From positions 1,568,001 through 1,632,000 of the forward strand of contig CBDCCI010000002.1 in assembly GCA_965214705.1 (NCBI GenBank): a stretch of DNA of 64,000 nucleotides. Reading direction: 5' to 3'. How positions within the stretch are numbered: position 1 is the first letter of the stretch; each line of letters opens with the position of its first letter. Made by a program: the position numbers and the translations under genes. The stretch is from Alphaproteobacteria bacterium (GTDB lineage Bacteria > Pseudomonadota > Alphaproteobacteria > UBA828). Below, piece by piece: positions 2,673 through 48,531 of the stretch. The notes under the pieces were generated by a model. It searched no databases. It worked only from the letters and a program-made list of their open reading frames with translations, and had not been told where the DNA came from.

Positions 2673-2890
2673 TGAACATCAACCCGAATACACCTCAGCC
2701 CAGCCGTCAGGCTGTCCGAAAAGGCGAGGCCACCTCACTCTTTCTCAGGCTGCCATCCCCGAGTGGTGCGCCCGACGCGGTTGAACATCAACCCGAATAC
2801 ACCTCAGCCCAGCCGTCAGGCTGTCCGAAAAGGCGAGGCCACCTCACTCTTTCTCAGGCTGCCATCCCCGAGTGGTGCGCCCGACGCGGT
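2673..2890. repeat. Perfect 109-bp tandem duplication (2673-2781, 2782-2890)
   Basis: TGAACATCAACCCG...CCCGACGCGGT occurs twice head to tail, with no differences seen. Confidence 0.95.
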
Positions 2891-3160
2891 TAGCGCCGGG
2901 TTCATTCCTGGTTGTTGATATATTGGAAACGACGGTGAACAATTGCTCGATTGTTGAATAATTCGGAATTGAACTTCTCATAAAATCGCTTGTCCTGTTG
3001 CCATCCGATCATGCACCAATTGTCCGCTGTGCGCATACGATCCGATGCCTCCATGTTCGAGCGGCTTGGGCACCCCACAGAGCTTGCATCAATTCCGTTG
3101 CCGACGACTTCACGGGTTCTTCCGGGTGGCGTGATTTCGGCTGGGGCGGGCGCAGGGTAG

Positions 3161-3891
3161 TTGCCGATGCCTTCCAGGTACCGCGATATCGCCTTTGGTC
3201 CCGTAAGCACCCGGGTGAGTCGAGCCGTGGGCCGTTTCTTCGTCGGCACCCGCGCGGGGGCCACATCCATCGTTACGGCAGCGGTCGCGGTGATGTCGGT
3301 CGCAGGCTTTGCGTTTGTCACCGACCACATCTGGCTGATCGATCAGCGCGACGTGCTCAAGAACGCCGCCGATGCAGCTGCGATCGCTGCCACGCAGGAG
3401 ATGAATCGCCGGCTTATCCCCACTCCGGACATGAGCGAGGACGATCTGAAGACTGCCATTGCCCCCGTGGCGGAAAACTACATCAAGCTGAATCTCGCCT
3501 ATCTGCCGACTGACCGTCTCACCCGAGCCGAAGAGACGCTCACGGTGGCCGTCACGCCCGATCGCAACCTGGGCACGGTGGATGTGGCGACGACGGCGGA
3601 CCTCGGCGGCACGCTGTTCTCCCGGCATCTGCCGATCCTCAGCAACTACAAAGGGCCTGCAAAGGTCGGCATCCGTGCCGGCGTCGAGACCAGGGTGACA
3701 CCCGTCGAGGCCGTGCTCGCCATCGACGTGAGCATATCCATGCTAGCCAAGCTGGACGGAGGATTTCCGGACAAGGATATGAATGAGAAGAGCCGCATGG
3801 ACATCGTCAAGGACGCGGCCAAGGCACTCGTCAACATCCTCCGGCCCAACGAGCACAACCGCGTCGCGATCGGCGTCGTGCCGTGGCACTT
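3161..3891 (+). pseudogene. TadG-like pilus/adhesin protein with vWA domain, 5' part (interrupted)
   Basis: N-terminal TM followed by LKNAADAAAIAA Tad motif; MIDAS AIDVSISM; breaks at IGVVPWH at the element junction. Confidence 0.85.
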
Positions 3892-4120
3892 GAACGAAGC
3901 CGCTACGCGGAGTTAGCGGCGTAGAGTTCATTCATTTCCGAGGCGTCGCGGGTGCCGTTTGTTCTGTGCGTTCGCTTCCCGGTTGCGTCAGTGGCGCTCC
4001 GCCCGTCGGGTGGCGGATCCCCAGCAGCCTCCCGATCACCAGTGGTTAGCATCGACCCCTGCGACGGACCGTCGCCGGATCGGTCCGGCGGCGCGCCGTC
4101 GCGATCCAGGGAGATCGATA

Positions 4121-4999
4121 ATGACCGGGACCGCGTGCGACACGAACACCGTCACCCCTCTTCGCCAGCGCATGGAGGAGCAGCTCCGCATCGCCAATCT
4201 GGCCGCGAGCACGTCCAAGGCCTACATCTGCGAGATCAAGAACCTGGCCAGGTACTACGACGCCTCGCCGGACGAGCTCGACGCCGAGCAGGTGCGCCAG
4301 TGGTACCTGGGGCGGATCGACAAGGGGCTCAGTCCGGGCACGACCAACGTCTCCTTCGCCGCGCTGAACTTCCTCTACATCGACACACTCGGCTGGCCTG
4401 ACCATGTCGCCGGCCTGCGCTCCCGCAAGAAGCCCGGCAAGCTGCCGCGCTACATGTCGGAGCAGGAGGTCGAGCACCTCATCCTTGCGACACCCGACCT
4501 CCGCCACCGTGCTGCCATTGTCACCGGCTATGGCGGCGGGCTCCGCATCTCCGAGACCTTGGCCATCAAGGTCGGCGACATCCTGTCGGAGAAGAAGCTG
4601 CTGCACATCCCCTCCGGCAAAGGCGGCACCGAGAGAATGGCACCGTTGCCGGACATCGTCATCCACTACTTGCGCGTCTACTACAGGAACATCTGGCCGC
4701 GTCCGACGAGCTGGCTCTTCTACGGCGTCTCGCTCGACAGGCCCATCGCAACGGAGACCTTGCAGGCCGCCTTCAGGAGGGCGCGCGACATTGCCGAGCT
4801 CGACCGCAGCTACACCTTCCATTGCCTGCGCCATTCGGCGGCGACCCATCTCCTCGAGCGCGGCGGCGATATCGAGGTGATCCGGGACATGCTCGGCCAT
4901 CGAAGCGCGAACACGACCCGTCACTACGCCCGCGTCACCGGCAAGATGTTCGAGGGCCTCGACCACCCGATCTCAGGCTTCGCAGCGTTGCGCAACTGA
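4121..4999 (+). CDS. Tyrosine recombinase with N-terminal SAM-like domain
   Basis: GLRISE (R), SGKGG (K), HCLRH, LGH, TRHY (Y); ATG at 4121 after RBS GGAGA. Confidence 0.93.
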   Translation: MTGTACDTNTVTPLRQRMEEQLRIANLAASTSKAYICEIKNLARYYDASPDELDAEQVRQWYLGRIDKGLSPGTTNVSFAALNFLYIDTLGWPDHVAGLRSRKKPGKLPRYMSEQEVEHLILATPDLRHRAAIVTGYGGGLRISETLAIKVGDILSEKKLLHIPSGKGGTERMAPLPDIVIHYLRVYYRNIWPRPTSWLFYGVSLDRPIATETLQAAFRRARDIAELDRSYTFHCLRHSAATHLLERGGDIEVIRDMLGHRSANTTRHYARVTGKMFEGLDHPISGFAALRN

Positions 5000-5005
5000 C
5001 GGCGC

Positions 5006-6247
5006 GTGGAGGCCGAACGCGCGGGCGTGGCGGAGATCTTCCGCCGCGCCGGCGCCGCTTTCCGTGAGCGCCACAAAGGGCGCATCGACGCCGCCCGGCT
5101 CAAGGTCATGGGCGCCATCGAGGCGTGCCGCACCGCCGTGCTCGGCGGCCACATGTACGCCTGCGAGGGCTGCGGGCGCGAGCATCCGCTCTTCAACTCC
5201 TGCCGCAACCGCCACTGCCCCACCTGCCAGGGTCTCGCCGCCAACCTCTGGAGCGAGGAGCGCGCCGGGGACATCCTGCCGGTGCCCTACTTCCATGTGG
5301 TCTTCACCCTGCCCAAGGAGGTTGCCGCCATTGCCTTCTGCAACCGCAGGGTGGTGTTCGACATCCTCTTCCGGGCCGTCGCCGAGACCCTGCGCACCAT
5401 CGCCGCCGATCCCCGCCACGGCGGCATGCGCATCGGCGGCACCGCGGTCCTCCATACCTGGGATCAGAAGCTCCGCTTCCACCCGCACCTGCACGTGGTC
5501 GTGCCCAACGCGGGCTTCGACGTAGACAGTGGCGAGTGGAAGACGGGGAGCACCACCTTCCTCGCCCCCGTCAAGGTCCTCGGCAGCCTGTTCCGCCGCC
5601 TCTTCCTCGAGGAGCTCGCCCGCGCCCACGGCCGGGGGGACCTGGAGTTCCACGGCACCGTCGCCCACCTCGCCAATCCCGGCGAGTTCCACGCCACGCT
5701 TGCCGCCGCCCGGGCCAGGGACTGGGTGGTCTACGCCAAGCGGCCCTTCCGCGGGCCTGAGCAGGTCTTCCGGTACCTCTCGCACTACACGCACAGGATC
5801 GCCATCTCCGACAGCCGCATCGTCTCCTTCGACGGCGAGACGGTCTCCTTCCGCCACCGAAAGCCCAAGGCGCCGGGGCAGAGAAAGCCGCGCTACGGCA
5901 TCGCCACCGTGAGCGCCGACGAGTTCATCCGCCGCTTCCTGAGGCACGTCCTGCCGGACGGCATGCACCGCATTCGCTACTTCGGCATCCTCGCCAACGG
6001 CTGCCGCGCCAGCACGCTGGAGAGAGCACGCCAGGCTCTCGGCGCCCTCGGCTGCGCCGCCCCCGAGGGAAGCGTGGACGGCGCTCGGGCCGAGCCCGAC
6101 GAAGAGCCCGAGATCGGCACCGCGCCCGTGGCCTGCCCCCACTGCGGCGGCGTCATGCGCCTCGTCCGCGAAATCCGCCGCCGCCATGAGCCCCGCTCGA
6201 CGCGCGGCCCGCCGGCGCTGCCGCCGACCCACAGGGGGAAACCGTGA
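5006..6247 (+). CDS. IS91-family rolling-circle transposase (Zn-binding + HUH/Y2)
   Basis: CEGC..SCRNRHCPTC, HVVFTLP, HPHLH (HUH), YLSHY (Y2), C-terminal CPHC. Confidence 0.93.
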   Translation: MEAERAGVAEIFRRAGAAFRERHKGRIDAARLKVMGAIEACRTAVLGGHMYACEGCGREHPLFNSCRNRHCPTCQGLAANLWSEERAGDILPVPYFHVVFTLPKEVAAIAFCNRRVVFDILFRAVAETLRTIAADPRHGGMRIGGTAVLHTWDQKLRFHPHLHVVVPNAGFDVDSGEWKTGSTTFLAPVKVLGSLFRRLFLEELARAHGRGDLEFHGTVAHLANPGEFHATLAAARARDWVVYAKRPFRGPEQVFRYLSHYTHRIAISDSRIVSFDGETVSFRHRKPKAPGQRKPRYGIATVSADEFIRRFLRHVLPDGMHRIRYFGILANGCRASTLERARQALGALGCAAPEGSVDGARAEPDEEPEIGTAPVACPHCGGVMRLVREIRRRHEPRSTRGPPALPPTHRGKP

Positions 6248-6509
6248 GACGCCCGCTCGCTTCGGCCCCGCGCAACGGCGCCAAAGCGCCGACGCACGAC
6301 CGAACCTGTCTCCGCTTGAGCCGGGCTGACAGCCCTCGGCTCACACCCCGCTCAGTCCTCGCAGCGTGCGCCCGCATGCCTGCCGAAAGACCGGCGCGAG
6401 CGTCGATTTTATGCGCAACTCTGCTGCCGGTGGATGCCGCCTGACGCTGACATCAGCGCACTTTCCACATAGCTCAACTTCGCCTCTCGTGGCCCGCGGC
6501 TTCGTTCAA

Positions 6510-6551
6510 AAGGGTTGGGCAGGCTCTCGAGAGAGAGCCTGCCCAACCCTT
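6510..6551. repeat. Perfect 19-bp stem / 4-nt loop hairpin at the element's right end
   Basis: AAGGGTTGGGCAGGCTCTC-gaga-GAGAGCCTGCCCAACCCTT; also present in copy 2 (40241-40282). Confidence 0.9.
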
Positions 6552-6557
6552 AACCTT

Positions 6558-7516
6558 TCACCGTGCGCCTTGCGGATGCGACGGCCACGGATTGGAGCAC
6601 CAAGCGCTGGGCGCGCTATCCGACAGAGCGAACCTACGGCGTGCCCTACGAATGCACTCCTTCGTTGAACACCTGCAAGCCGGACGCCATCAAGGCGGAA
6701 CTCCCGTCGTCTGCGCCGGAAGATTGGGACGGATGCCTCGACGGCCACCGCATGGGAGGCAGCGGAACCAGTGCAGCAAACCCCGCAGTGGCGGATCTCT
6801 TCACCACGCCGTCGGTCAATGCATTCTCTCAGGCGTACTATCCCTCCCTCTACGGGTTCCAATATGAGTGTTCTCCCTGGGACGCCATCGAAGACTACCC
6901 TTCCGATTTTTGGGACATGAGCTGCTACAATCCCTACGATCCCAACGACCTCCGTTCTGGCGATTATCGACCACAGTACGGTTGCGACGACACGGATCCG
7001 ACCATCCTTCCCTTGAGCACCGACCGCACCACCATCATCGGTGCCATAGACGGTCTCTCCGCCGACGGCTCGAAGACTTACTCCGCGCTCGGCGTGCTGT
7101 GGGGCCAACGCATGCTTCTGTCGTCGTGGCGGAGCGTGTGGGGAGGGACCGTTCATCCCGTGGACCCCGCCTCCGCCGACGGGAAGGGCGTCCGCAAGGT
7201 CATCGTTCTCCTCACCGACGGCTATGACTCCATCTGCGGTGACGATAATGTCGCCTGCACCGACAGCGCGATCGGCATATCGCGCACCGACGCGTGCACG
7301 CTGGCGAAGAACGCGGGGATCGAGATCTTTGTCGTGGCGGCCATGCACCCGGACTACGTCTCGACCGATTTCGGGACATCGCTGACCGAATGCTCCAGCG
7401 AATCCGACGACTCGGACGAAACTTACGCGTTTCTCAACAATGCGACCTCGGAGAGCCTTCAGACCGCGTTCGAGAGCATTGCGAACCAGTTGCGGGTCGT
7501 CCGGCGAACTCACTGA
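6558..7516 (+). pseudogene. TadG-like vWA protein, 3' part
   Basis: Same frame as the 3161 ORF; TYSALGVLWG, KVIVLLTDG, IEIFVV, LQTAFESIA are typical of a TadG vWA C-terminus. Confidence 0.85.
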
Positions 7517-16419: not shown

Positions 16420-16441
16420 GCTTCGTGAAGTGCCCCCGCCG

Positions 16442-18120
16442 GGGTGTGATTCTCGTATGGCGATATGCCAGTCGTGATGGCGCTAAAGGATATGGGCTGG
16501 TTCATTTTGGTCAAGCAGCGAGTGCCAGGACTTCGGTTGGGCTGATGTTGTCGTTAGCTGGTCCGGATCGGGCGTCCATGAGCGCATCCCATGCCCGGTC
16601 GAAGAGGCCGGATTTGATCAGGGCGCGGAAGGTCAGAACCGCCTGCCCGCCGTCGATCCGCCAGCGCATGCCCGAGCGTTTCAAGCGCTGCGCGACGAGG
16701 GTCTTGCAGGCCGCCTCGACCACACCCGAGCCGATGGCGATGCCCTCTTCCTTCAGGGCGTGGTAGCGCATCCGATGGCGGTGCTTTCGGAAGAAGGCCA
16801 GCTCGCGCTCGATCTCGGCCGGGTCCCCCTTTGCCCTGTCCAGGAGGTAGCGCAGTGCCCGGATCACCTTGTCGACGCCGCGGGGGTCGTGGCGCAGGAT
16901 TTCGCGGTGCTTCTCGAACCAGTGGCGCGCCACCGCATGGTCAGAGGCCACGCGGAGATGCTCGCAAGCGTGCCAGAAGTCGATGACCTCGGTCTCGGGC
17001 GAGAGGCTTTCGAGGAAGGTCCAGTTGTCGGCGGCCCCGTCGGCGACGGCGCCGATCCTGATCTTCGGGCTCACACGGCGGATATGGGCGACCTCGCTTG
17101 CAAGTTGCGCTTTCAGCGCGGCCTTGCCGCTCTCGGGCATACGGCCGAGATAGAGGGTCTTCAGCCGTTGGCCCTCGGCGTCGTGGAAGGAGACCGTGCC
17201 GCAAGAGGCCTCGCGCCAGCACGCCTCGGCACGGCCGTCCTCGCCGGCCCGCAGCGCCACCATGACGCCGTCAAGGGAGACGGACGCGGTGACCGCATCG
17301 GGCGGTATGCCCTGGGTTTCACGGATGCTGGCCAGCGTCTCCGGGGCGACGCTCTCCCAGTGCTCATGCATGCTCAGGGCCAGGCGCTGCAGCGTGCTCA
17401 CCGACGGCGTCATTCCGCCCATTTTCGCGAAGAACTCCTCCGCTTCACGCGGCGTACAGTGGCCCATCATCATCAGCCCGAGCTGCGCCGCCGGCCGCGT
17501 CAGGTAGTCGTCGATGAGGCCCAGGCTCTCGTCCACCGGCACCAGCGACGTGCTGCTCGCGCCGCTGCGATAGCGCGCACGCCGATAGGTCACGGGACCG
17601 AGCGTCGTCATGATCGTCTTCGGCGTCGCCGCCACCCGGACCCAGCTCTGTCCGTCGCGCTCGATCCGGCTCGCACCGTCGTCGCGGCTCTCGGCGAAGG
17701 CCCCAAGGAGCTTGCAACCCAAGCCGTTCATGGCGTCCCGCAGCCCCGTCTCAACCGTTTCGAACGTCTCGGCAGACGGGTCAGACCCAGCCTGTTCGCG
17801 ACAGAACTCCACCACCTGGGCGACCGCTTCGGCGACTTCGGCAGGCAGGCCCAAAAGGTCGATGGACGAGGCGATGAGAGACTGCGACACTGGCATGGGA
17901 ACGCTCCTGATGTTGGGTCTGATGTTGGGTTGTCGGCGCGGCATCCTACCGCATCTCGCGGTGCGGAGCGTTCCCACCCACCACTGCTGGATGCCGCCGT
18001 TGTGACAAAATCCGGCCCTGCACCGGCCGATTGTCACGAAAACCCGATTCTGGCTGCCTACGGCCACCCGCCAATCGCGCTAAATCAATGACTTACGATC
18101 GCCATGCCAGACCTACACCC
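16442..18120 (-). mobile_element. ISKra4/ISLre2-type (Mutator-like) IS, copy 1, 1679 bp
   Basis: Imperfect IRs GGGTGTGATTCTCGTATGGCGAT / ATCGCCATGCCAGACCTACACCC; TSD CCCGCCG (7-8 bp, ambiguous in the homopolymer); matches 42867-44545. Confidence 0.92.
16511..17896 (-). CDS. DDE transposase (UPF0236 / ISKra4-ISLre2 type)
   Basis: SLDGVMV, ADGA, DFWHACEHL, IGSGVVEAACK, RLKRSGMRW; RBS AGGAG before MPVSQ. Confidence 0.88.
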   Translation of the reverse strand: MPVSQSLIASSIDLLGLPAEVAEAVAQVVEFCREQAGSDPSAETFETVETGLRDAMNGLGCKLLGAFAESRDDGASRIERDGQSWVRVAATPKTIMTTLGPVTYRRARYRSGASSTSLVPVDESLGLIDDYLTRPAAQLGLMMMGHCTPREAEEFFAKMGGMTPSVSTLQRLALSMHEHWESVAPETLASIRETQGIPPDAVTASVSLDGVMVALRAGEDGRAEACWREASCGTVSFHDAEGQRLKTLYLGRMPESGKAALKAQLASEVAHIRRVSPKIRIGAVADGAADNWTFLESLSPETEVIDFWHACEHLRVASDHAVARHWFEKHREILRHDPRGVDKVIRALRYLLDRAKGDPAEIERELAFFRKHRHRMRYHALKEEGIAIGSGVVEAACKTLVAQRLKRSGMRWRIDGGQAVLTFRALIKSGLFDRAWDALMDARSGPANDNISPTEVLALAA

Positions 18121-40219: not shown

Positions 40220-40237
40220 ATGAGAGGCCCGAAGAAG
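40220..40237 (+). pseudogene. Severed first codons (MRGPKK) of the TonB-dependent receptor
   Basis: ATG AGA GGC CCG AAG AAG joins in frame to ACC CTT CTG GCG at 48532, giving the signal peptide MRGPKKTLLASLASLAAFVLLATNAVHA. Confidence 0.75.
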
Positions 40238-40544
40238 GTTAAGGGTTGGGCAGGCTCTCTCTCGAGAGCCTGCCCAACCCTTTTGAACGAAGCCGCGGGC
40301 CACGAGAGGCGAAGTTGAGCTATGTGGAAAGTGCGCTGATGTCAGCGTCAGGCGGCATCCACCGGCAGCAGAGTTGCGCATAAAATCGACGCTCGCGCCG
40401 GTCTTTCGGCAGGCATGCGGGCGCACGCTGCGAGGACTGAGCGGGGTGTGAGCCGAGGGCTGTCAGCCCGGCTCAAGCGGAGACAGGTTCGGTCGTGCGT
40501 CGGCGCTTTGGCGCCGTTGCGCGGGGCCGAAGCGAGCGGGCGTC

Positions 40545-41607
40545 TCACGGTTTCCCCCTGTGGGTCGGCGGCAGCGCCGGCGGGCCGCGCGTCGAGCGGG
40601 GCTCATGGCGGCGGCGGATTTCGCGGACGAGGCGCATGACGCCGCCGCAGTGGGGGCAGGCCACGGGCGCGGTGCCGATCTCGGGCTCTTCGTCGGGCTC
40701 GGCCTGAGCGCCGTCCACGCTTCCCTCGGGGGCGGCGCAGCCGAGGGCGCCGAGAGCCTGGCGTGCTCTCTCCAGCGTGCTGGCGCGGCAGCCGTTGGCG
40801 AGGATGCCGAAGTAGCGAGTGCGGTGCATGCCGTCCGGCAGGACGTGCCTCAGGAAGCGGCGGATGAACTCGTCGGCGCTCACGGTGGCGATGCCGTAGC
40901 GCGGCTTTCTCTGCCCCGGCGCCTTGGGCTTTCGGTGGCGGAAGGAGACCGTCTCGCCGTCGAAGGAGACGATGCGGCTGTCGGAGATGGCGATCCTGTG
41001 CGTGTAGTGCGAGAGGTACCGGAAGACCTGCTCAGGCCCGCGGAAGGGCCGCTTGGCGTAGACCACCCAGTCCCTGGCCCGGGCGGCGGCAAGCGTGGCG
41101 TGGAACTCGCCGGGATTGGCGAGGTGGGCGAGGGTGCCGTGGAACTCCAGGTCCCCCCGGCCGTGGGCGCGGGCGAGCTCCTTGAGGAAGAGGCGGCGGA
41201 ACAGGCTGCCGAGGACCTTGACGGGGGCGAGGAAGGTGGTGCTCCCCGTCTTCCACTCGCCACTGTCTACGTCGAAGCCCGCGTTGGGCACGACCACGTG
41301 CAGGTGCGGGTGGAAGCGGAGCTTCTGATCCCAGGTATGGAGGACCGCGGTGCCGCCGATGCGCATGCCGCCGTGGCGGGGATCGGCGGCGATGGTGCGC
41401 AGGGTCTCGGCGACGGCCCGGAAGAGGATGTCGAACACCACCCTGCGGTTGCAGAAGGCAATGGCGGCAACCTCCTTGGGCAGGGTGAAGACCACATGGA
41501 AGTAGGGCACCGGCAGGATGTCCCCGGCGCGCTCCTCGCTCCAGAGGTTGGCGGCGAGACCCTGGCAGGTGGGGCAGTGGCGGTTGCGGCAGGAGTTGAA
41601 GAGCGGA
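40545..41607 (-). pseudogene. IS91-type transposase, 3' part (intron-interrupted)
   Basis: PLFNSCRNRHC... as in copy 1, with a few substitutions (LEE>LKE, GTV>GTL, HRI>HRT, ARA>AQA). Confidence 0.92.
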
Positions 41608-42866
41608 GTGCGCCAGGCGAACTGGTGCGAGTGCAGTTGGTGAAAGTCCAACAGGAAGGAGAAGGTGAGCCACCACTTCCACCCCGAGTCATGGGCCGTC
41701 GCTCGCGAGGGCGAGGGTCAAGCGTTGACAGGGGCGCGTGTGGGCGGGGCTATTGAGCACCGAAAGAAACATCATCCGGGATGCCGAGGCTCTTTCGTTG
41801 GCCGAAGGTCGCATCTGGCCCACCGATATGGCGAGGGGGGTCTGAATCCCGCGGTGTCAGAGAACCCACGCACGTACGTACGCACTGCACCGGGACCTGG
41901 GAGGTCTCCATGTCATCCCGCTGAGTCGTGGCGGGAACGCTGAGGAAAGGAGGAGTCCGTAACCGAAGATGAACGACATGGAGAAATCAGACTCGGCCAT
42001 AGTGTGTGCTGGGCAGCGCCCAGATCAGGTGGGTTCAAGTCCCACTGGCGCTCGGGTAAGGGGCGCCATATCCAAAAGTGGGGGTAATTCCTCACTGGCC
42101 GGAGTGAGCCGATAAGCGAAACTCTAAACGGGCACGAAGCCGGAAACGGCGGAGACAGCCAAGGGAGGAGCTAAGTTGGTCCACTGTCGAAAGACAACCG
42201 GAAGGCAGGGTGTCCACCGCGAGGTGGAATCTGAAGGGCTTGCGGAGAAGTACCGGGCCGTAATCGAGGGGGCCACCCCATGATGAATCGGTCGGCCAAA
42301 GACGGGGCAAGGTCGAGCCGGCACTATGGCGGCGAAGGCGTTCTTACCCACCCGTCGCACCAAGGTGTTTGCGAGCGGCACGGTACGGAAGATCTGGACG
42401 TGACCCCAGGAGGGCTCGCCGCGTTCCCGGGTGGCACCGGGATAACGGACCCTATAAGCCGAAAGGCGAAATGGGAAAGGATGCGCGGCGAGCAATCGGA
42501 CAACCGAATAGTACCTGAAGCCCGGCGAAAGCCGGGTGACCGCGCGAGCGGCGGCCGTGTGGGCCGGGGAAGGCGGTTGGCAGAGGTGGTCGGCGAGAGA
42601 CAGCGATGAGTGAGTAAGGACCATGACGCGGACAAGTTCCTTGAGCGAAAGACCCGGACATCATGGCCCGAGGAGACTCATCGACTGGATCAACCCGGCG
42701 GGTGACAGGAAGGTCCACTCACTGGTGGACAAGGTGTACAAGCGGAAGAACCTTGAGGTGGCCTGGGAAAAGGTGAAGCGCAACCGGGGTGCCGGTGGCG
42801 TGGACGGAGAGGATTTAGCGGCGTTCGAGGCATCGCTGGATGCAAATCTCGATCGCCTGCACCGGG

Positions 42867-44545
42867 GGGTGTGATTCTCGTATGGCGATATGCCAGTCGT
42901 GATGGCGCTAAAGGATATGGGCTGGTTCATTTTGGTCAAGCAGCGAGTGCCAGGACTTCGGTTGGGCTGATGTTGTCGTTAGCTGGTCCGGATCGGGCGT
43001 CCATGAGCGCATCCCATGCCCGGTCGAAGAGGCCGGATTTGATCAGGGCGCGGAAGGTCAGAACCGCCTGCCCGCCGTCGATCCGCCAGCGCATGCCCGA
43101 GCGTTTCAAGCGCTGCGCGACGAGGGTCTTGCAGGCCGCCTCGACCACACCCGAGCCGATGGCGATGCCCTCTTCCTTCAGGGCGTGGTAGCGCATCCGA
43201 TGGCGGTGCTTTCGGAAGAAGGCCAGCTCGCGCTCGATCTCGGCCGGGTCCCCCTTTGCCCTGTCCAGGAGGTAGCGCAGTGCCCGGATCACCTTGTCGA
43301 CGCCGCGGGGGTCGTGGCGCAGGATTTCGCGGTGCTTCTCGAACCAGTGGCGCGCCACCGCATGGTCAGAGGCCACGCGGAGATGCTCGCAAGCGTGCCA
43401 GAAGTCGATGACCTCGGTCTCGGGCGAGAGGCTTTCGAGGAAGGTCCAGTTGTCGGCGGCCCCGTCGGCGACGGCGCCGATCCTGATCTTCGGGCTCACA
43501 CGGCGGATATGGGCGACCTCGCTTGCAAGTTGCGCTTTCAGCGCGGCCTTGCCGCTCTCGGGCATACGGCCGAGATAGAGGGTCTTCAGCCGTTGGCCCT
43601 CGGCGTCGTGGAAGGAGACCGTGCCGCAAGAGGCCTCGCGCCAGCACGCCTCGGCACGGCCGTCCTCGCCGGCCCGCAGCGCCACCATGACGCCGTCAAG
43701 GGAGACGGACGCGGTGACCGCATCGGGCGGTATGCCCTGGGTTTCACGGATGCTGGCCAGCGTCTCCGGGGCGACGCTCTCCCAGTGCTCATGCATGCTC
43801 AGGGCCAGGCGCTGCAGCGTGCTCACCGACGGCGTCATTCCGCCCATTTTCGCGAAGAACTCCTCCGCTTCACGCGGCGTACAGTGGCCCATCATCATCA
43901 GCCCGAGCTGCGCCGCCGGCCGCGTCAGGTAGTCGTCGATGAGGCCCAGGCTCTCGTCCACCGGCACCAGCGACGTGCTGCTCGCGCCGCTGCGATAGCG
44001 CGCACGCCGATAGGTCACGGGACCGAGCGTCGTCATGATCGTCTTCGGCGTCGCCGCCACCCGGACCCAGCTCTGTCCGTCGCGCTCGATCCGGCTCGCA
44101 CCGTCGTCGCGGCTCTCGGCGAAGGCCCCAAGGAGCTTGCAACCCAAGCCGTTCATGGCGTCCCGCAGCCCCGTCTCAACCGTTTCGAACGTCTCGGCAG
44201 ACGGGTCAGACCCAGCCTGTTCGCGACAGAACTCCACCACCTGGGCGACCGCTTCGGCGACTTCGGCAGGCAGGCCCAAAAGGTCGATGGACGAGGCGAT
44301 GAGAGACTGCGACACTGGCATGGGAACGCTCCTGATGTTGGGTCTGATGTTGGGTTGTCGGCGCGGCATCCTACCGCATCTCGCGGTGCGGAGCGTTCCC
44401 ACCCACCACTGCTGGATGCCGCCGTTGTGACAAAATCCGGCCCTGCACCGGCCGATTGTCACGAAAACCCGATTCTGGCTGCCTACGGCCACCCGCCAAT
44501 CGCGCTAAATCAATGACTTACGATCGCCATGCCAGACCTACACCC
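42867..44545 (-). mobile_element. ISKra4/ISLre2-type IS, copy 2
   Basis: 8-bp TSD GCACCGGG (42859-42866, 44546-44553); same IRs and ORF as copy 1. Confidence 0.94.
42936..44321 (-). CDS. DDE transposase (UPF0236 / ISKra4-ISLre2 type)
   Basis: Translation identical to 16511-17896. Confidence 0.88.
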   Translation of the reverse strand: MPVSQSLIASSIDLLGLPAEVAEAVAQVVEFCREQAGSDPSAETFETVETGLRDAMNGLGCKLLGAFAESRDDGASRIERDGQSWVRVAATPKTIMTTLGPVTYRRARYRSGASSTSLVPVDESLGLIDDYLTRPAAQLGLMMMGHCTPREAEEFFAKMGGMTPSVSTLQRLALSMHEHWESVAPETLASIRETQGIPPDAVTASVSLDGVMVALRAGEDGRAEACWREASCGTVSFHDAEGQRLKTLYLGRMPESGKAALKAQLASEVAHIRRVSPKIRIGAVADGAADNWTFLESLSPETEVIDFWHACEHLRVASDHAVARHWFEKHREILRHDPRGVDKVIRALRYLLDRAKGDPAEIERELAFFRKHRHRMRYHALKEEGIAIGSGVVEAACKTLVAQRLKRSGMRWRIDGGQAVLTFRALIKSGLFDRAWDALMDARSGPANDNISPTEVLALAA

Positions 44546-45718
44546 GCACCGGGAGTTGCGGGACGGTGAGTATCACCCGCAGCCGGTTCTCCAATGCCTG
44601 ATCCCCAAGGCGGGCCAGCCGGGGAAGTTCCGCCCGCTCGGCATCCCGACAATCTACGACCGGGTGTGCCAGCAGGCGCTGCTGAACCGGCTGGAACCGA
44701 TCTTCGAGCCGGTGTTCGACGATGCCAACTACGGGTACCGGCAAGGAAGGTCTGCCCATGGAGCGTTACGCAAGATATGGAGGGAACTGGACGAGGGCAA
44801 CGAGTGGGTTCTCGATGCGGATTTGAAAGACTTTTTCGGGTCCGTGGACCACGAAAAGCTCCTCGAACTCGTCAACCAGCGAGTCTCGGATGGCCGGGTA
44901 TTAGGTCTGCTCAGGCAGATGCTCACGGCCGGGGTGGTGGCCGACGGTAAGAGGCTGCCGACCGAACAGGGCACTCCGCAGGGCGGCATCGTTTCACCGC
45001 TGCTCAGCAATATCTTGCTGACCCCGTTCGATTGGGAAATGCGTCGTCGCGGCTATCGACTAACGCGATACGCCGATGATTGGCTGATCACGTGCCGCAC
45101 ACGCGGGGAAGCCCGCGCAGCACTGGAGACGGCCAGGCGGATTCTGGCAAAGCTGGGTGTGTCCCTCAACGCCGGGAAGACCCGCATTGTCCATGTCAGG
45201 CACGGGTTTGAGTTCCTCGGCTACAAGATCAAGCAGGGCGAGCGGCCTCTCCGGCTGTCGTCCTCCAAGATCAAGAGCGGGGTTCGCGGGGGAGCGCGCT
45301 ACGCGGTTCCGCGTGAGAAATCCATCCGGCACTTCAAGGACCAGATTCGCCAGCGTACCCGGCGCAAGGCTCCTGTCAGCACGCAGGAGCTGATTGACGA
45401 GATCAACCCGATCATTCGGGGATGGGGCCAATACTATTGCAAGGCCCACGTCCGCGGGCTCTTCCACCAGCTTGACGGCTGGATCGTGCGGCGGCTCTGG
45501 TCGCATCGTCGCAAGCGCTGGCGCAACGCTGGCTGGAAACAGTTGCCGGAGCGCAAGCTGATCGACGAATACGGGCTTGTTCGCCTGATCTCACTGGTTC
45601 CGTCCTTGAACCTTCGTTGAGACACCTTTGTGAAAGCGGCTTACGGGAAAACCGTACGGGCCGTTTGAGCGGCGGACGGAGGCTAGCCTCGCGGGGCGCC
45701 TCCTCCGACCCGACAGCG

Positions 45719-47158
45719 ATGAAGCCGGCGAACAATGGGGCACCTGCCCCGGCGGAGCCGGTGGAGCCAAGGGCCGAGCCCAAGGGGAATCTGGAAGGCC
45801 AAAGCACGCGCCGGACGCAGGACCGGGAGAGCGTGTCACAAGCGGCTGACCGGATACGGCAGTTTGTACAAAGGGAACCTGGGGTGCGTCTCACGACGCT
45901 CCTCCATCACGTCACGGTCGCTGCGCTGCGCTGGGCGTTCTTCGAGTTGAAGAAGGACGCTGCGGCGGGTGTCGATGGCCTGACGTGGCGGATGTACAAG
46001 GAAGGGCTGGAAGGCCGTCTCGCCGACCTGCACGACCGAGTGCACTCGGGGGCGTACCGGGCGACGCCATCACGGCGGGTGAACATCCCGAAGCCGGATG
46101 GCGGCACACGACCGCTCGGCGTCGCGGCCATAGAGGACAAGATCGTCCAGAAGGCTGTGGCGGAGATAATCCTGACGCCGATCTACGAGGCGGAGTTTCT
46201 GGGGTTTAGCTACGGGTTCCGACCCGAGCGTGGGGCGCACAATGCGCTCGATGCGCTGGCGGTCGGGATCGAAAGGCGCAAGATCAACTGGATAGTGGAC
46301 TGTGACATCCGCAAGTTTTTCGACACGGTTTCGAGGGACTGGCTGGTCCGGTTTCTAGAGCACCGGATAGGGGACAGGCGGGTTATCAGGCTGATTATCA
46401 AGTGGTTGAACGCTGGCGTCATGGAAGCTGGAGAGTGGCGTGACGACCTGCGGGGAACTCCGCAGGGTTCGGTGATTTCGCCGATCTTGGCGAACGTTTA
46501 TCTGCACTACGTCCTCGATCTTTGGTTCCAGAAGAAGTGGCGCAGCCACGAGGTCAACGGCGACTCGATCATCGTTCGCTACGCCGACGACTCTGTGGTG
46601 GGTTTTCAGCACGAGCAGGACGCGGAGTGCTTTCTGGAGGCCGTAAAGGAGCGGCTCGGACGCTTCGACCTGGAACTGCATCCCGACAAGACCCGGCTCA
46701 TCGAGTTCGGGCGGCACGCCATAGAGCGCCGCCAAGGCCGAGGGCAGGGTAGACCGGAGACCTTCGATTTTCTGGGCTTCACACACTACTGCGCGAAGAC
46801 CAGACGGGGGTACTTCATGCTGGGGCGCAGGCCGATGGCGAAGAGGATGGCCCGCACCCTGAAGCGGATCAAAGAGGTGCTACGCAGGCGGATGCATGAC
46901 AACATCGAGGATACGGCCAGGTGGCTGGGCAAAGTGGTGGACGGATGGCTGAACTACTATGCCGTCCCGACCAGCAGCCGGTACTTACAACGCTTCCTCG
47001 TCCGCCTAAAGCGGGTGTGGCTCGCCATTATACGCCGCAGATCGCAAAAGGACCGATTTACATGGGCCGACATCGACAAACTTAAAGCTCGACACTGGCC
47101 CAAGCTGAGAATCCGACACCCGTGGCCGGATCAACGACTAGCCGTCAGTTCGACCTGA
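45719..47158 (+). CDS. ltrA: Outer intron RT/maturase, intact, no endonuclease domain evident
   Basis: AAGVDG, IPKPDGGTRPLG, FSYGFRP, GTPQG, RYADD, FDFLGFTH, GWLNYY; alternative GTG start at 45833. Confidence 0.92.
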   Translation: MKPANNGAPAPAEPVEPRAEPKGNLEGQSTRRTQDRESVSQAADRIRQFVQREPGVRLTTLLHHVTVAALRWAFFELKKDAAAGVDGLTWRMYKEGLEGRLADLHDRVHSGAYRATPSRRVNIPKPDGGTRPLGVAAIEDKIVQKAVAEIILTPIYEAEFLGFSYGFRPERGAHNALDALAVGIERRKINWIVDCDIRKFFDTVSRDWLVRFLEHRIGDRRVIRLIIKWLNAGVMEAGEWRDDLRGTPQGSVISPILANVYLHYVLDLWFQKKWRSHEVNGDSIIVRYADDSVVGFQHEQDAECFLEAVKERLGRFDLELHPDKTRLIEFGRHAIERRQGRGQGRPETFDFLGFTHYCAKTRRGYFMLGRRPMAKRMARTLKRIKEVLRRRMHDNIEDTARWLGKVVDGWLNYYAVPTSSRYLQRFLVRLKRVWLAIIRRRSQKDRFTWADIDKLKARHWPKLRIRHPWPDQRLAVSST

Positions 47159-47235
47159 GGGAGGAGCCGGATGCCTTAGCGGGCACGTCCGGATCTGCGC
47201 GGGGGGAGCGGGGCAACCCGCTTCCCTACCGCGAT

Positions 47236-47414
47236 TGCTCGCGCCCGCAGCCCTCGCAGGCGTACATGTGGCCGCCGAGCACGGCGGTGCGGCACGCCTC
47301 GATGGCGCCCATGACCTTGAGCCGGGCGGCGTCGATGCGCCCTTTGTGGCGCTCACGGAAAGCGGCGCCGGCGCGGCGGAAGATCTCCGCCACGCCCGCG
47401 CGTTCGGCCTCCAC
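47236..47414 (-). pseudogene. IS91-type transposase, 5' part
   Basis: MEAERAG...CEGCGRE identical to copy 1 up to the intron junction. Confidence 0.92.
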
Positions 47415-47420
47415 GCGCCG

Positions 47421-48299
47421 TCAGTTGCGCAACGCTGCGAAGCCTGAGATCGGGTGGTCGAGGCCCTCGAACATCTTGCCGGTGACGCGGGCGTAGTGAC
47501 GGGTCGTGTTCGCGCTTCGATGGCCGAGCATGTCCCGGATCACCTCGATATCGCCGCCGCGCTCGAGGAGATGGGTCGCCGCCGAATGGCGCAGGCAATG
47601 GAAGGTGTAGCTGCGGTCGAGCTCGGCAATGTCGCGCGCCCTCCTGAAGGCGGCCTGCAAGGTCTCCGTTGCGATGGGCCTGTCGAGCGAGACGCCGTAG
47701 AAGAGCCAGCTCGTCGGACGCGGCCAGATGTTCCTGTAGTAGACGCGCAAGTAGTGGATGACGATGTCCGGCAACGGTGCCATTCTCTCGGTGCCGCCTT
47801 TGCCGGAGGGGATGTGCAGCAGCTTCTTCTCCGACAGGATGTCGCCGACCTTGATGGCCAAGGTCTCGGAGATGCGGAGCCCGCCGCCATAGCCGGTGAC
47901 AATGGCAGCACGGTGGCGGAGGTCGGGTGTCGCAAGGATGAGGTGCTCGACCTCCTGCTCCGACATGTAGCGCGGCAGCTTGCCGGGCTTCTTGCGGGAG
48001 CGCAGGCCGGCGACATGGTCAGGCCAGCCGAGTGTGTCGATGTAGAGGAAGTTCAGCGCGGCGAAGGAGACGTTGGTCGTGCCCGGACTGAGCCCCTTGT
48101 CGATCCGCCCCAGGTACCACTGGCGCACCTGCTCGGCGTCGAGCTCGTCCGGCGAGGCGTCGTAGTACCTGGCCAGGTTCTTGATCTCGCAGATGTAGGC
48201 CTTGGACGTGCTCGCGGCCAGATTGGCGATGCGGAGCTGCTCCTCCATGCGCTGGCGAAGAGGGGTGACGGTGTTCGTGTCGCACGCGGTCCCGGTCAT
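47421..48299 (-). CDS. Tyrosine recombinase (copy 2, intact)
   Basis: Translation identical to 4121-4999. Confidence 0.93.
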   Translation of the reverse strand: MTGTACDTNTVTPLRQRMEEQLRIANLAASTSKAYICEIKNLARYYDASPDELDAEQVRQWYLGRIDKGLSPGTTNVSFAALNFLYIDTLGWPDHVAGLRSRKKPGKLPRYMSEQEVEHLILATPDLRHRAAIVTGYGGGLRISETLAIKVGDILSEKKLLHIPSGKGGTERMAPLPDIVIHYLRVYYRNIWPRPTSWLFYGVSLDRPIATETLQAAFRRARDIAELDRSYTFHCLRHSAATHLLERGGDIEVIRDMLGHRSANTTRHYARVTGKMFEGLDHPISGFAALRN

Positions 48300-48531
48300 T
48301 ATCGATCTCCCTGGATCGCGACGGCGCGCCGCCGGACCGATCCGGCGACGGTCCGTCGCAGGGGTCGATGCTAACCACTGGTGATCGGGAGGCTGCTGGG
48401 GATCCGCCACCCGACGGGCGGAGCGCCACTGACGCAACCGGGAAGCGAACGCACAGAACAAACGGCACCCGCGACGCCTCGGAAATGAATGAACTCTACG
48501 CCGCTAACTCCGCGTAGCGGCTTCGTTCAAG

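Follow-up and report, generated by a model that had tools for sequence, protein, structure and literature searches.

The stretch of DNA analysed here (in the following, the window) comprises 64,000 nucleotides from an alphaproteobacterium of the lineage UBA828 (assembly GCA_965214705.1, contig CBDCCI010000002.1, positions 1,568,001 to 1,632,000), the genome of which has a size of 7.92 Mb in three contigs. At positions 3890 to 6555 of its plus strand the window carries an insertion sequence (IS) of 2,666 bp, which reads TTGAACG...CCCTTAACC and is delimited by 94 left and 92 right ends from the same genome as well as by paralogous and orthologous empty sites. The part that is invariant between copies runs from GAACGAAG to CCCTTAACC. 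The IS harbors two genes on the plus strand. One encodes a tyrosine recombinase of 292 amino acids counted from an ATG (4121 to 4999), although it may start elsewhere, its frame being open from 3959, and the other an IS91-family HUH/Y2 transposase of 413 amino acids (5006 to 6247). An earlier inspection of the letters alone (the sequence-only reading) had proposed a mobile element with these two enzymes as well as a second, independent insertion. The former agrees with the Pfam and NCBIfam assignments given below, and the latter is real: comparison of the window with itself recovered it on the minus strand, divided into two pieces that match 47236-48531 and 40235-41611.

Proteins and ends of the element

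The recombinase contains the Pfam domains Phage_integrase and Phage_int_SAM_4, and its best relatives of solved structure are XerA/XerC-like proteins, XerD and IntI4. The catalytic residues R, K, HxxR, H and Y were aligned to those of the XerA-like protein 4a8e and of XerD 1a0p (LRISE, GKGG, HCLRH, GH and RHY). The protein stays under the cut-offs of the equivalog models for XerC (134 bits versus 335) and XerD (118 versus 330), and likewise under those of the integron-integrase models TIGR02249 (130 bits versus 265, matched in two stretches) and NF011946 (75 versus 435). From the match to TIGR02249 in two stretches we read that the IntI-specific insert is probably missing. By these alignments, the protein is a Xer/IntI-like tyrosine recombinase. 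Recombinases borne by IS91 elements have been classed as 'Integron-like' and as being without the IntI insertion (bioRxiv 10.1101/542381, accessible part).

The transposase matches the Pfam families Zn_Tnp_IS91 with 104 bits and Y2_Tnp with 184 bits, and it reaches 382.5 bits with the NCBIfam model NF033538, the cut-off of which is 125. Its residues H159, H161 and H163 as well as Y257 and Y261 are invariant in alignment A1. The element is accordingly classified, by sequence, as a member of the IS91 family, and within it of a subgroup in which the HUH/Y2 transposase gene is preceded by a gene for a tyrosine recombinase.

The ends of the IS are not simple terminal inverted repeats. The left end CTTGAACGAAGCCGC occupies 3889-3903; its part from 3890 to 3903 is the left terminal repeat, which is invariant in the copies of this genome and the 10-mer motif of which is kept in relatives. 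On the bottom strand this repeat reads ...CGTTCAA and is then followed by the cut. A small hairpin (nCCGC, loop, GCGGn) lies at 3899 to 3911 and pairs at four of five positions in this lineage, and an alternative 7-bp stem joins 3899-3905 with 3914-3920. The overlapping left stems proposed in the sequence-only reading, GCCGCTA/TAGCGGC, CTACGC/GCGTAG and TGAAC/GTTCA, are indeed all present in the sequence, but the fold of this end is weak, with z values of -1.5 on the plus strand and -2.5 on the minus strand.

At the right end, the same reading had described a non-coding motif, an internal partner of the left repeat and a perfect hairpin, and all three were found as described. The motif CTTTCCACATAG (6461 to 6472) sits 24 nt upstream of the right repeat copy. 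As the inverted partner of the left end, this subterminal repeat copy (IRR; GCGGCTTCGTTCAA) extends from 6496 to 6509, which is 48 bp inside the right boundary common to both window copies. It is followed at 6510 to 6551 by a hairpin with a perfect 19-bp stem (6510-6528 and 6533-6551) and the 4-nt loop GAGA, for which a folding energy of -27.3 kcal/mol and a z value of -8.3 were calculated and which was equalled by none of 200 shuffled sequences. The tail AACC (6552 to 6555), the end of a conserved AACCCT...-type tail, closes the element and is invariant in all 92 right ends.

Architecture in related loci

The comparison included 83 related loci, namely 79 from a profile search with one genome per species and four from relatives; judged by record titles, the transposase-related loci span several phyla. 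In 80 of the 83 loci a recombinase gene lies directly upstream on the same strand. The left 10-mer is accompanied by an IRR copy (at most two mismatches in 12) at a distance of 1.9 to 2.7 kb downstream in 53 of 80 loci. In relatives, the IRR is followed at once by a long hairpin and a short AACCCT-type tail, and many contigs of about 2.5 kb end there, a few nt past the hairpin. A hairpin opening with at least ten pairs within 30 nt past the IRR was present in all 47 related loci tested. The pattern of the small left hairpin was recognized in 48 of 49 relatives, 44 of which show full pairing at five of five positions, and its outermost pair covaries, being C-G in 22, A-T in 13 and G-C in 8 cases. 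Moreover, between lineages the repeat copies of the two ends change together. The sequence CCACATAG falls in the most conserved non-coding block, the clade consensus of which is aAATCCCCATAG; in an alignment of 49 sequences, 11 of the 12 motif columns are conserved at 70% or more and the first at 50-70%. A sister family with about 81% identity in the same genome has the same left end, N|TTGAACG (the bar marks the crossover point), and a right end reading ...CCCTAAAGA|TT, and its right hairpin shows compensatory changes.

The recurrent features of the clade in this comparison are the small hairpin on the left, the subterminal repeat, the CCCCATAG-type motif and the right hairpin with its tail. 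Of these, the right hairpin and the CCACATAG-type motif, which the sequence-only reading had put forward as a possible oriIS nick region, are conserved and functional-looking. According to the accessible parts of a study on IS91 (PMC13181058), that element makes no target duplication, carries subterminal palindromes at both ends, has its target tetranucleotide adjoining oriIS and has a terIS cut site that is related to the target. By analogy, the right end with motif, subterminal repeat, hairpin and tail may be described as oriIS-like, and the left end with its tip and small hairpin as terIS-like. The end architecture, which had been regarded as unusual in the sequence-only reading, is not so, because its features are common to the clade, both genes being found in 80 of the 83 loci, and because it maps onto the oriIS/terIS logic of IS91.

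Beside these shared features, one close relative (79% transposase identity; L051) carries a short tandem repeat of GAATTCGCCCGT-like units in its right flank, directly after the tail.

Copies in the genome, junctions and empty sites

The IS is present in about 90 copies of 95-100% identity in this one genome. A genome search yielded 41 full-length matches and BLAST yielded 135 pieces; at an identity of at least 95%, 94 left and 92 right ends were extracted from the whole genome, and left and right end could be paired for 91 copies. Among the 66 uninterrupted copies, the recombinase frame is open in all 66 and the transposase frame in 62. By copy number, identity and open frames, the element thus looks like a young and active insertion sequence. 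Assembled contigs from four public runs break at 3889-3891 and 6555-6557, and in these runs the IS is covered 50 to 200 times as deeply as its flanks. No bias of orientation with respect to replication was readable, the cumulative GC skew being weak in this rearranged genome: by top-strand skew, 27 copies are on the plus and 32 on the minus strand in regions with G>C, and 19 and 13, respectively, in regions with C>G.

Removal of copies sharing a flank left 81 independent insertions, which form the basis of the junction and target counts; one entry (C2_646629) is mis-paired with a neighbouring tandem copy, its own left end being counted as right flank. Ahead of the left TT, 41 insertions have C, 26 have T, 11 have A and 3 have G, and the TT itself is nearly fixed (78 of 81 insertions have the first T and 80 of 81 the second). 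On the right, TT stands in 66 of the 81 insertions; the others have AT, CT, GA or CG there. Combined as left/right, the dinucleotides are TT/TT in 64 insertions, TT/AT and TT/CT in four each, TT/GA in three, TT/CG and CT/TT in two each, and TA/CT and AT/AT in one each. The junctions are therefore asymmetric: of 13 insertions with TT on the left and another dinucleotide on the right, two are artefacts of a nested IS, leaving 11 against two of the reverse kind. In these 11 copies, inserted at targets without TT, the left junction reads TT and the right junction retains the letters of the target. A target GTTA yielded G-TT as left and C-TT as right junction. The base ahead of the left TT is derived from the target, the left TT moves with the element, and the right dinucleotide is again derived from the target. 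In the simplest reading, insertion of a unit TTGAACG...CCCTTAACC takes place at N|NN, strongly favours N|TT(G) and duplicates no target bases.

These results disagree with the sequence-only reading in one central point, as it had taken CTT for the common end and the core of the crossover. The comparison of the genomic copies, a check that it had suggested, gave N|TT with a single crossover point and asymmetric junctions, and neither a 3-bp core nor a duplication. The shared C-TT...TT of the window copies is an artefact of comparing only two copies, both of which happen to lie in C|TT targets.

Paralogous empty sites were found for 26 of the 91 copies, and 24 remain without two artefacts of a tandem pair. 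The net gain at these sites amounts to 2,666 bp in 22 cases, 2,667 bp in one and 2,668 bp in one, and the surplus in the two longer ones consists of T at the right end. For the window copy at 3890 to 6555 (copy 1), the orthologous empty site in a genome of the same genus (G006) reads GGCAC|TTCACC. It follows that copy 1 represents a gain of 2,667 bp, with one extra T (any of 6556-6558) ahead of the TTC of the target.

Right junctions with CG after AACC, seen in nine copies, are not genuine. They are an artefact, because the normal CC-TT junction lies beyond another IS of about 2.1 kb nested within the TTAA of the tail. This IS has 15 copies, nine of which reside in the TTAA of an IS91-type right tail in both orientations, and the TTAA region is repeated on both sides of it (e.g. 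G000 C2:60100-62203 and C3:1555947-1558046).

The target site

The targets of the 81 insertions fall into 79 clusters at 50% identity and were therefore taken as independent. Their consensus is the dyad CGnnCAA-N6-TTGnnCG, with binomial p values of the target positions between 3e-3 and 2e-51. Counted over the 79 clusters, the left arm is defined by C at -13 (p 1e-3), G at -12 (3e-3), A at -8 (2e-11) and A at -7 (4e-10), while C at -9 is not significant; the right arm is defined by T at +1, T at +2, G at +3 (1e-3), C at +6 (4e-13) and G at +7 (2e-5). Position -1 is C or T and seldom G. The right arm TTGnnCG copies the left tip of the element, TTGAACG, and the left arm is the exact mirror of the right one. 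This mirror symmetry is maximal at a spacer of 6 nt, where 190 of 567 cells are complementary, compared with 168 at a spacer of 5, 162 at a spacer of 7 and 122-144 at spacers of 0-4 and 8-12. No covariation of the arms was detectable within single targets (z between -1.9 and +0.5 against shuffled arms), and so the target is read as two half-sites on duplex DNA and not as a hairpin. The two free positions per arm show no complementarity.

Core sites of the Xer and integron type consist of two inverted arms around a 6-bp spacer, with the crossover at the arm/spacer boundary after AA. The dyad target looks like such a Xer-type core site, if the analogy holds, and because of this likeness the recombinase plausibly, though unproven, takes part in integration. 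We consider the target logo a useful lead for further work and no proof.

Models of integration

The reading to which these data lead us is an integration by two enzymes, with the recombinase acting at least as a reader of the target, and we regard it as evenly poised between right and wrong. Following the model of the family, the HUH enzyme would start at the right end, peel the bottom strand up to the left end and close a single-stranded circle. According to the target logo, this circle would be inserted at the bond 5'-CGnnCAA|N in the bottom strand of the double-stranded dyad CGnnCAA-N6-TTGnnCG. The logo also suggests a dimeric reader of duplex DNA in this step, which would most plausibly be the recombinase of the element itself; it may bind the dyad site and take part in capture or strand exchange. 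The one or two extra T would result from an imprecise cut at the right end, one or two bases into the TT flank. A single-stranded circle made by the HUH enzyme, as already supposed in the sequence-only reading, corresponds to a published intermediate of IS91, which makes single- and double-stranded circles and inserts only the bottom-strand circle (PMC13181058, accessible parts), and may be expected for the present element.

A more specific form of this model is that the HUH enzyme copies out a bottom-strand circle and the recombinase inserts it by exchanging a single strand at CAA|N, within degenerate dyads resembling dif or attI, using the paired repeats and the hairpin as a folded, attC-like donor. 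We put it forward tentatively and deem it rather unlikely to hold in all its parts. If true, the subgroup would represent an evolutionary bridge between rolling-circle transposons and the recombination of integron cassettes. For the folded donor, a 6-nt spacer with the hairpin looped out was considered and dropped, since the full 19-bp stem leaves 4 nt.

Several observations count against the two-enzyme reading or against the insertion rule on which it is built. The strong arm of the target equals the 7 nt at the ter end, exactly as a mechanism with the transposase only, as in IS91, predicts. A dimeric reader is suggested by the weaker mirror arm alone, which could also arise from an HUH enzyme acting as a dimer. 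In a folded donor joint with the 19-bp hairpin formed, 4 nt (AACC) and not 6 remain between the repeat arms. Two copies run opposite to the rule, with CT at the left junction and TT at the right one, and a further copy has AT at both; in addition, two paralogous empty sites read TC or GT while both junctions of the respective copies read TT; the latter may reflect variation between paralogs, which is not proven. In the distant relative G062 (copies L138-L141), the boundaries are without TT and the N|TT rule was not resolved. Finally, no circle-junction joints are listed for the four public runs, which consist of assembled contigs only and are hence uninformative on circles.

The strongest competing explanation, a serious possibility if of a probability short of even, assigns the whole reaction to the transposase as in IS91, IS801 and IS1294: HUH/Y2 makes and inserts the bottom-strand circle, the 7-mer of the target equals the left-end cut, and the recombinase is not involved in integration. 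The latter would then have an accessory role, either in regulation or termination, comparable to Orf121 of IS91, or in resolving tandem products. All canonical hallmarks of IS91 are present here (no duplication, a target motif at the right end that equals the cut site at the left end, and subterminal palindromes at both ends), the catalytic residues of the HUH enzyme are conserved, and the extra T at the right end fits a sloppy processing of rolling-circle ends. Furthermore, the upstream accessory Orf121 of IS91 was reported to be required for precise cleavage at terIS (PMC13181058, accessible parts). However, this explanation does not predict a mirrored left arm at exactly 6 nt, and it leaves unexplained both the co-variation of left and right repeat copies between lineages and a catalytically complete recombinase that is found in 80 of 83 loci and is open in 66 of 66 copies.

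That the recombinase alone excises and integrates a double-stranded circle, with the HUH protein only replicating it, is very improbable. The recombinase is complete and a head-to-tail tandem exists in the genome, as such a route would have it. Yet an exchange of two strands needs an identical overlap of 6-8 bp and gives symmetric mosaic junctions, whereas the observed ones are asymmetric (11 versus 2), and a double-stranded junction puts 46 bp between the repeat arms. A strand exchange by the recombinase over a 3-bp CTT common to circle junction and target, with CTT at both ends, is hardly credible any more: it was suggested by CTT...CTT in both window copies and is in line with CTTG in many targets, but it is contradicted by the junction counts, as 11 copies have TT on the left and no TT on the right and as the C is derived from the target on the left and from the element on the right whatever the target base (G-TT and C-TT at the GTTA target), and to our knowledge there are no tyrosine recombinases with an overlap of 2-3 bp.

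Relation to known systems

With IS91, IS801 and IS1294 the element shares a transposase with Zn-finger and Y2 motif, the lack of target duplication, subterminal palindromes at both ends, a sequence-specific target at the end downstream of the transposase gene, a left cut site related to the target and, probably, the polarity of the bottom strand. These elements have no recombinase (IS91 has Orf121), in contrast to the tyrosine recombinase described here. The present element further differs in a repeat of 12-17 bp common to the left tip and the subterminal right site, and in a 20-bp dyad with a 6-bp spacer in place of a tetranucleotide as target. Classic IS91 members have CTTG/GTTC, whereas here CAA precedes the cut on the transferred strand.

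Integron integrases perform a single-strand exchange at G|TT of a folded attC site with attI, which is resolved by replication, and the general form of their core sites is TTRRRY / RYYYAA. The repeat tips TTGAAC / GTTCAA fit this form, and the crossover is likewise located just ahead of TT. One-sided junctions fit a single-strand exchange, and a repeat stem with hairpin could form in the bottom-strand circle. Integration by the recombinase in the manner of integrons, as envisaged in the sequence-only reading, thus remains tenable with respect to the tips of the repeats, the Xer-like dyad and the class of the recombinase, but not with respect to its CTT core. The differences are considerable: the integron models stay under their cut-offs, the element has an HUH enzyme, the first base is not G, and the gene is part of a 2.7-kb IS with about 90 copies. 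Neither attI nor a cassette array nor extrahelical bases were seen, although no dedicated integron search was run. In the XerCD/dif system and the CTX-type phages, single-stranded phage DNA is integrated at dif; the site there, like the dyad target, has inverted arms that end with AA and begin with TT on either side of a 6-bp spacer, and it is cut at the arm/spacer boundary, but the recombinase is host-encoded and acts on one chromosomal site, whereas here it is encoded by the element and the sites are many and degenerate. Helitrons also combine an HUH-Y2 enzyme with insertion at a fixed dinucleotide, no target duplication and a hairpin a few nt from one end; they differ in being eukaryotic, in their helicase fusion, in having no recombinase and in their other ends. 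As to the recombinases of IS91 elements, their placement in the 'Integron-like' subgroup (10.1101/542381, accessible part) is a further trait in common with integron integrases.

IS91-family elements with an integrase-type gene are already on record. The names ISShvi3, ISWz1 and ISMno23 are presumably those of such entries with an upstream integrase-type gene in ISfinder, which have the same two-gene layout as the element described here. ISShvi3 has been reported as an IS91-family element next to an attC site (PMC9229058) and ISWz1 as an IS91-family element (PMC11322121); the accessible passages of these two papers give neither ends nor targets nor a role of the recombinase, and the approximately 90 copies analysed here supply ends and targets. 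The element as such is ordinary, and a previously described entry in ISfinder or TnPedia is possible. No paper on the role of the recombinase or on a dyad target in this IS91 subgroup was found in a literature search that left ISfinder, TnPedia and most subscription journals outside. With about 90 recent copies, a single genome provides base-exact ends, 81 independent targets and a dyad consensus, and the role of the recombinase becomes a simple genetic test. As IS91-type elements move resistance genes, knowledge of what selects their targets is of practical use.

Host gene, second copy and nested insertions

Copy 1 has broken a host gene on the plus strand, the 5' part of which lies at 3161 to 3889 and the 3' part at 6557-7516. 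It is Tad/TadG-like and vWA-type, with a weak match to Pfam Tad (21.9 bits, just under the cut-off), and its intact ortholog in G006 is a frame of 562 amino acids with 98% identity.

The second window copy (copy 2), on the minus strand, is split by an insert of 5,624 bp at element position 1296. Its left part at 47236 to 48530 corresponds to element positions 2-1296 (100% identity over 1,296 nt) and its right part at 40237 to 41611 to positions 1294-2667 (99.6% identity over 1,377 nt), and the HUH gene is disrupted. The insert (41612-47235) was identified as a group II intron by an Rfam match (RF02005) on the plus strand at 41643-41866, and with its two reverse-transcriptase/maturase frames at 44529-45620 and 45617-47158 it looks like an intron nested in an intron. 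It also includes an IS of 1,680 bp with a UPF0236-type frame (42866-44545), which is identical to window positions 16441-18120.

One exact site of the transposase gene, element position 1307 (CTCTTCA|ACTCC, window position 5195), is occupied by an insertion in at least 15 copies of the IS91-type element. Ten of the inserts have a length of 1,649 bp, and one that was examined (L149, G000:C1:39380-41140) belongs to the IS110 family. Loose ends in the public runs X1, X2 and X5 show the same insertion, which looks like a site-specific parasite of the IS91-type element.

Two copies of the IS are arranged head to tail at G000:C2:643959-649297, where their joint is a long perfect palindrome with -54 kcal/mol. 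Spacer and hairpin loop have been remodelled there, the repeat arms and the hairpin now being one palindrome, and for this reason the tandem dimer is unfit to stand in for a circle junction.

Upstream of the broken Tad/vWA-like gene, a 110-bp unit is repeated in direct tandem with 100% identity at window positions 2673-2891.

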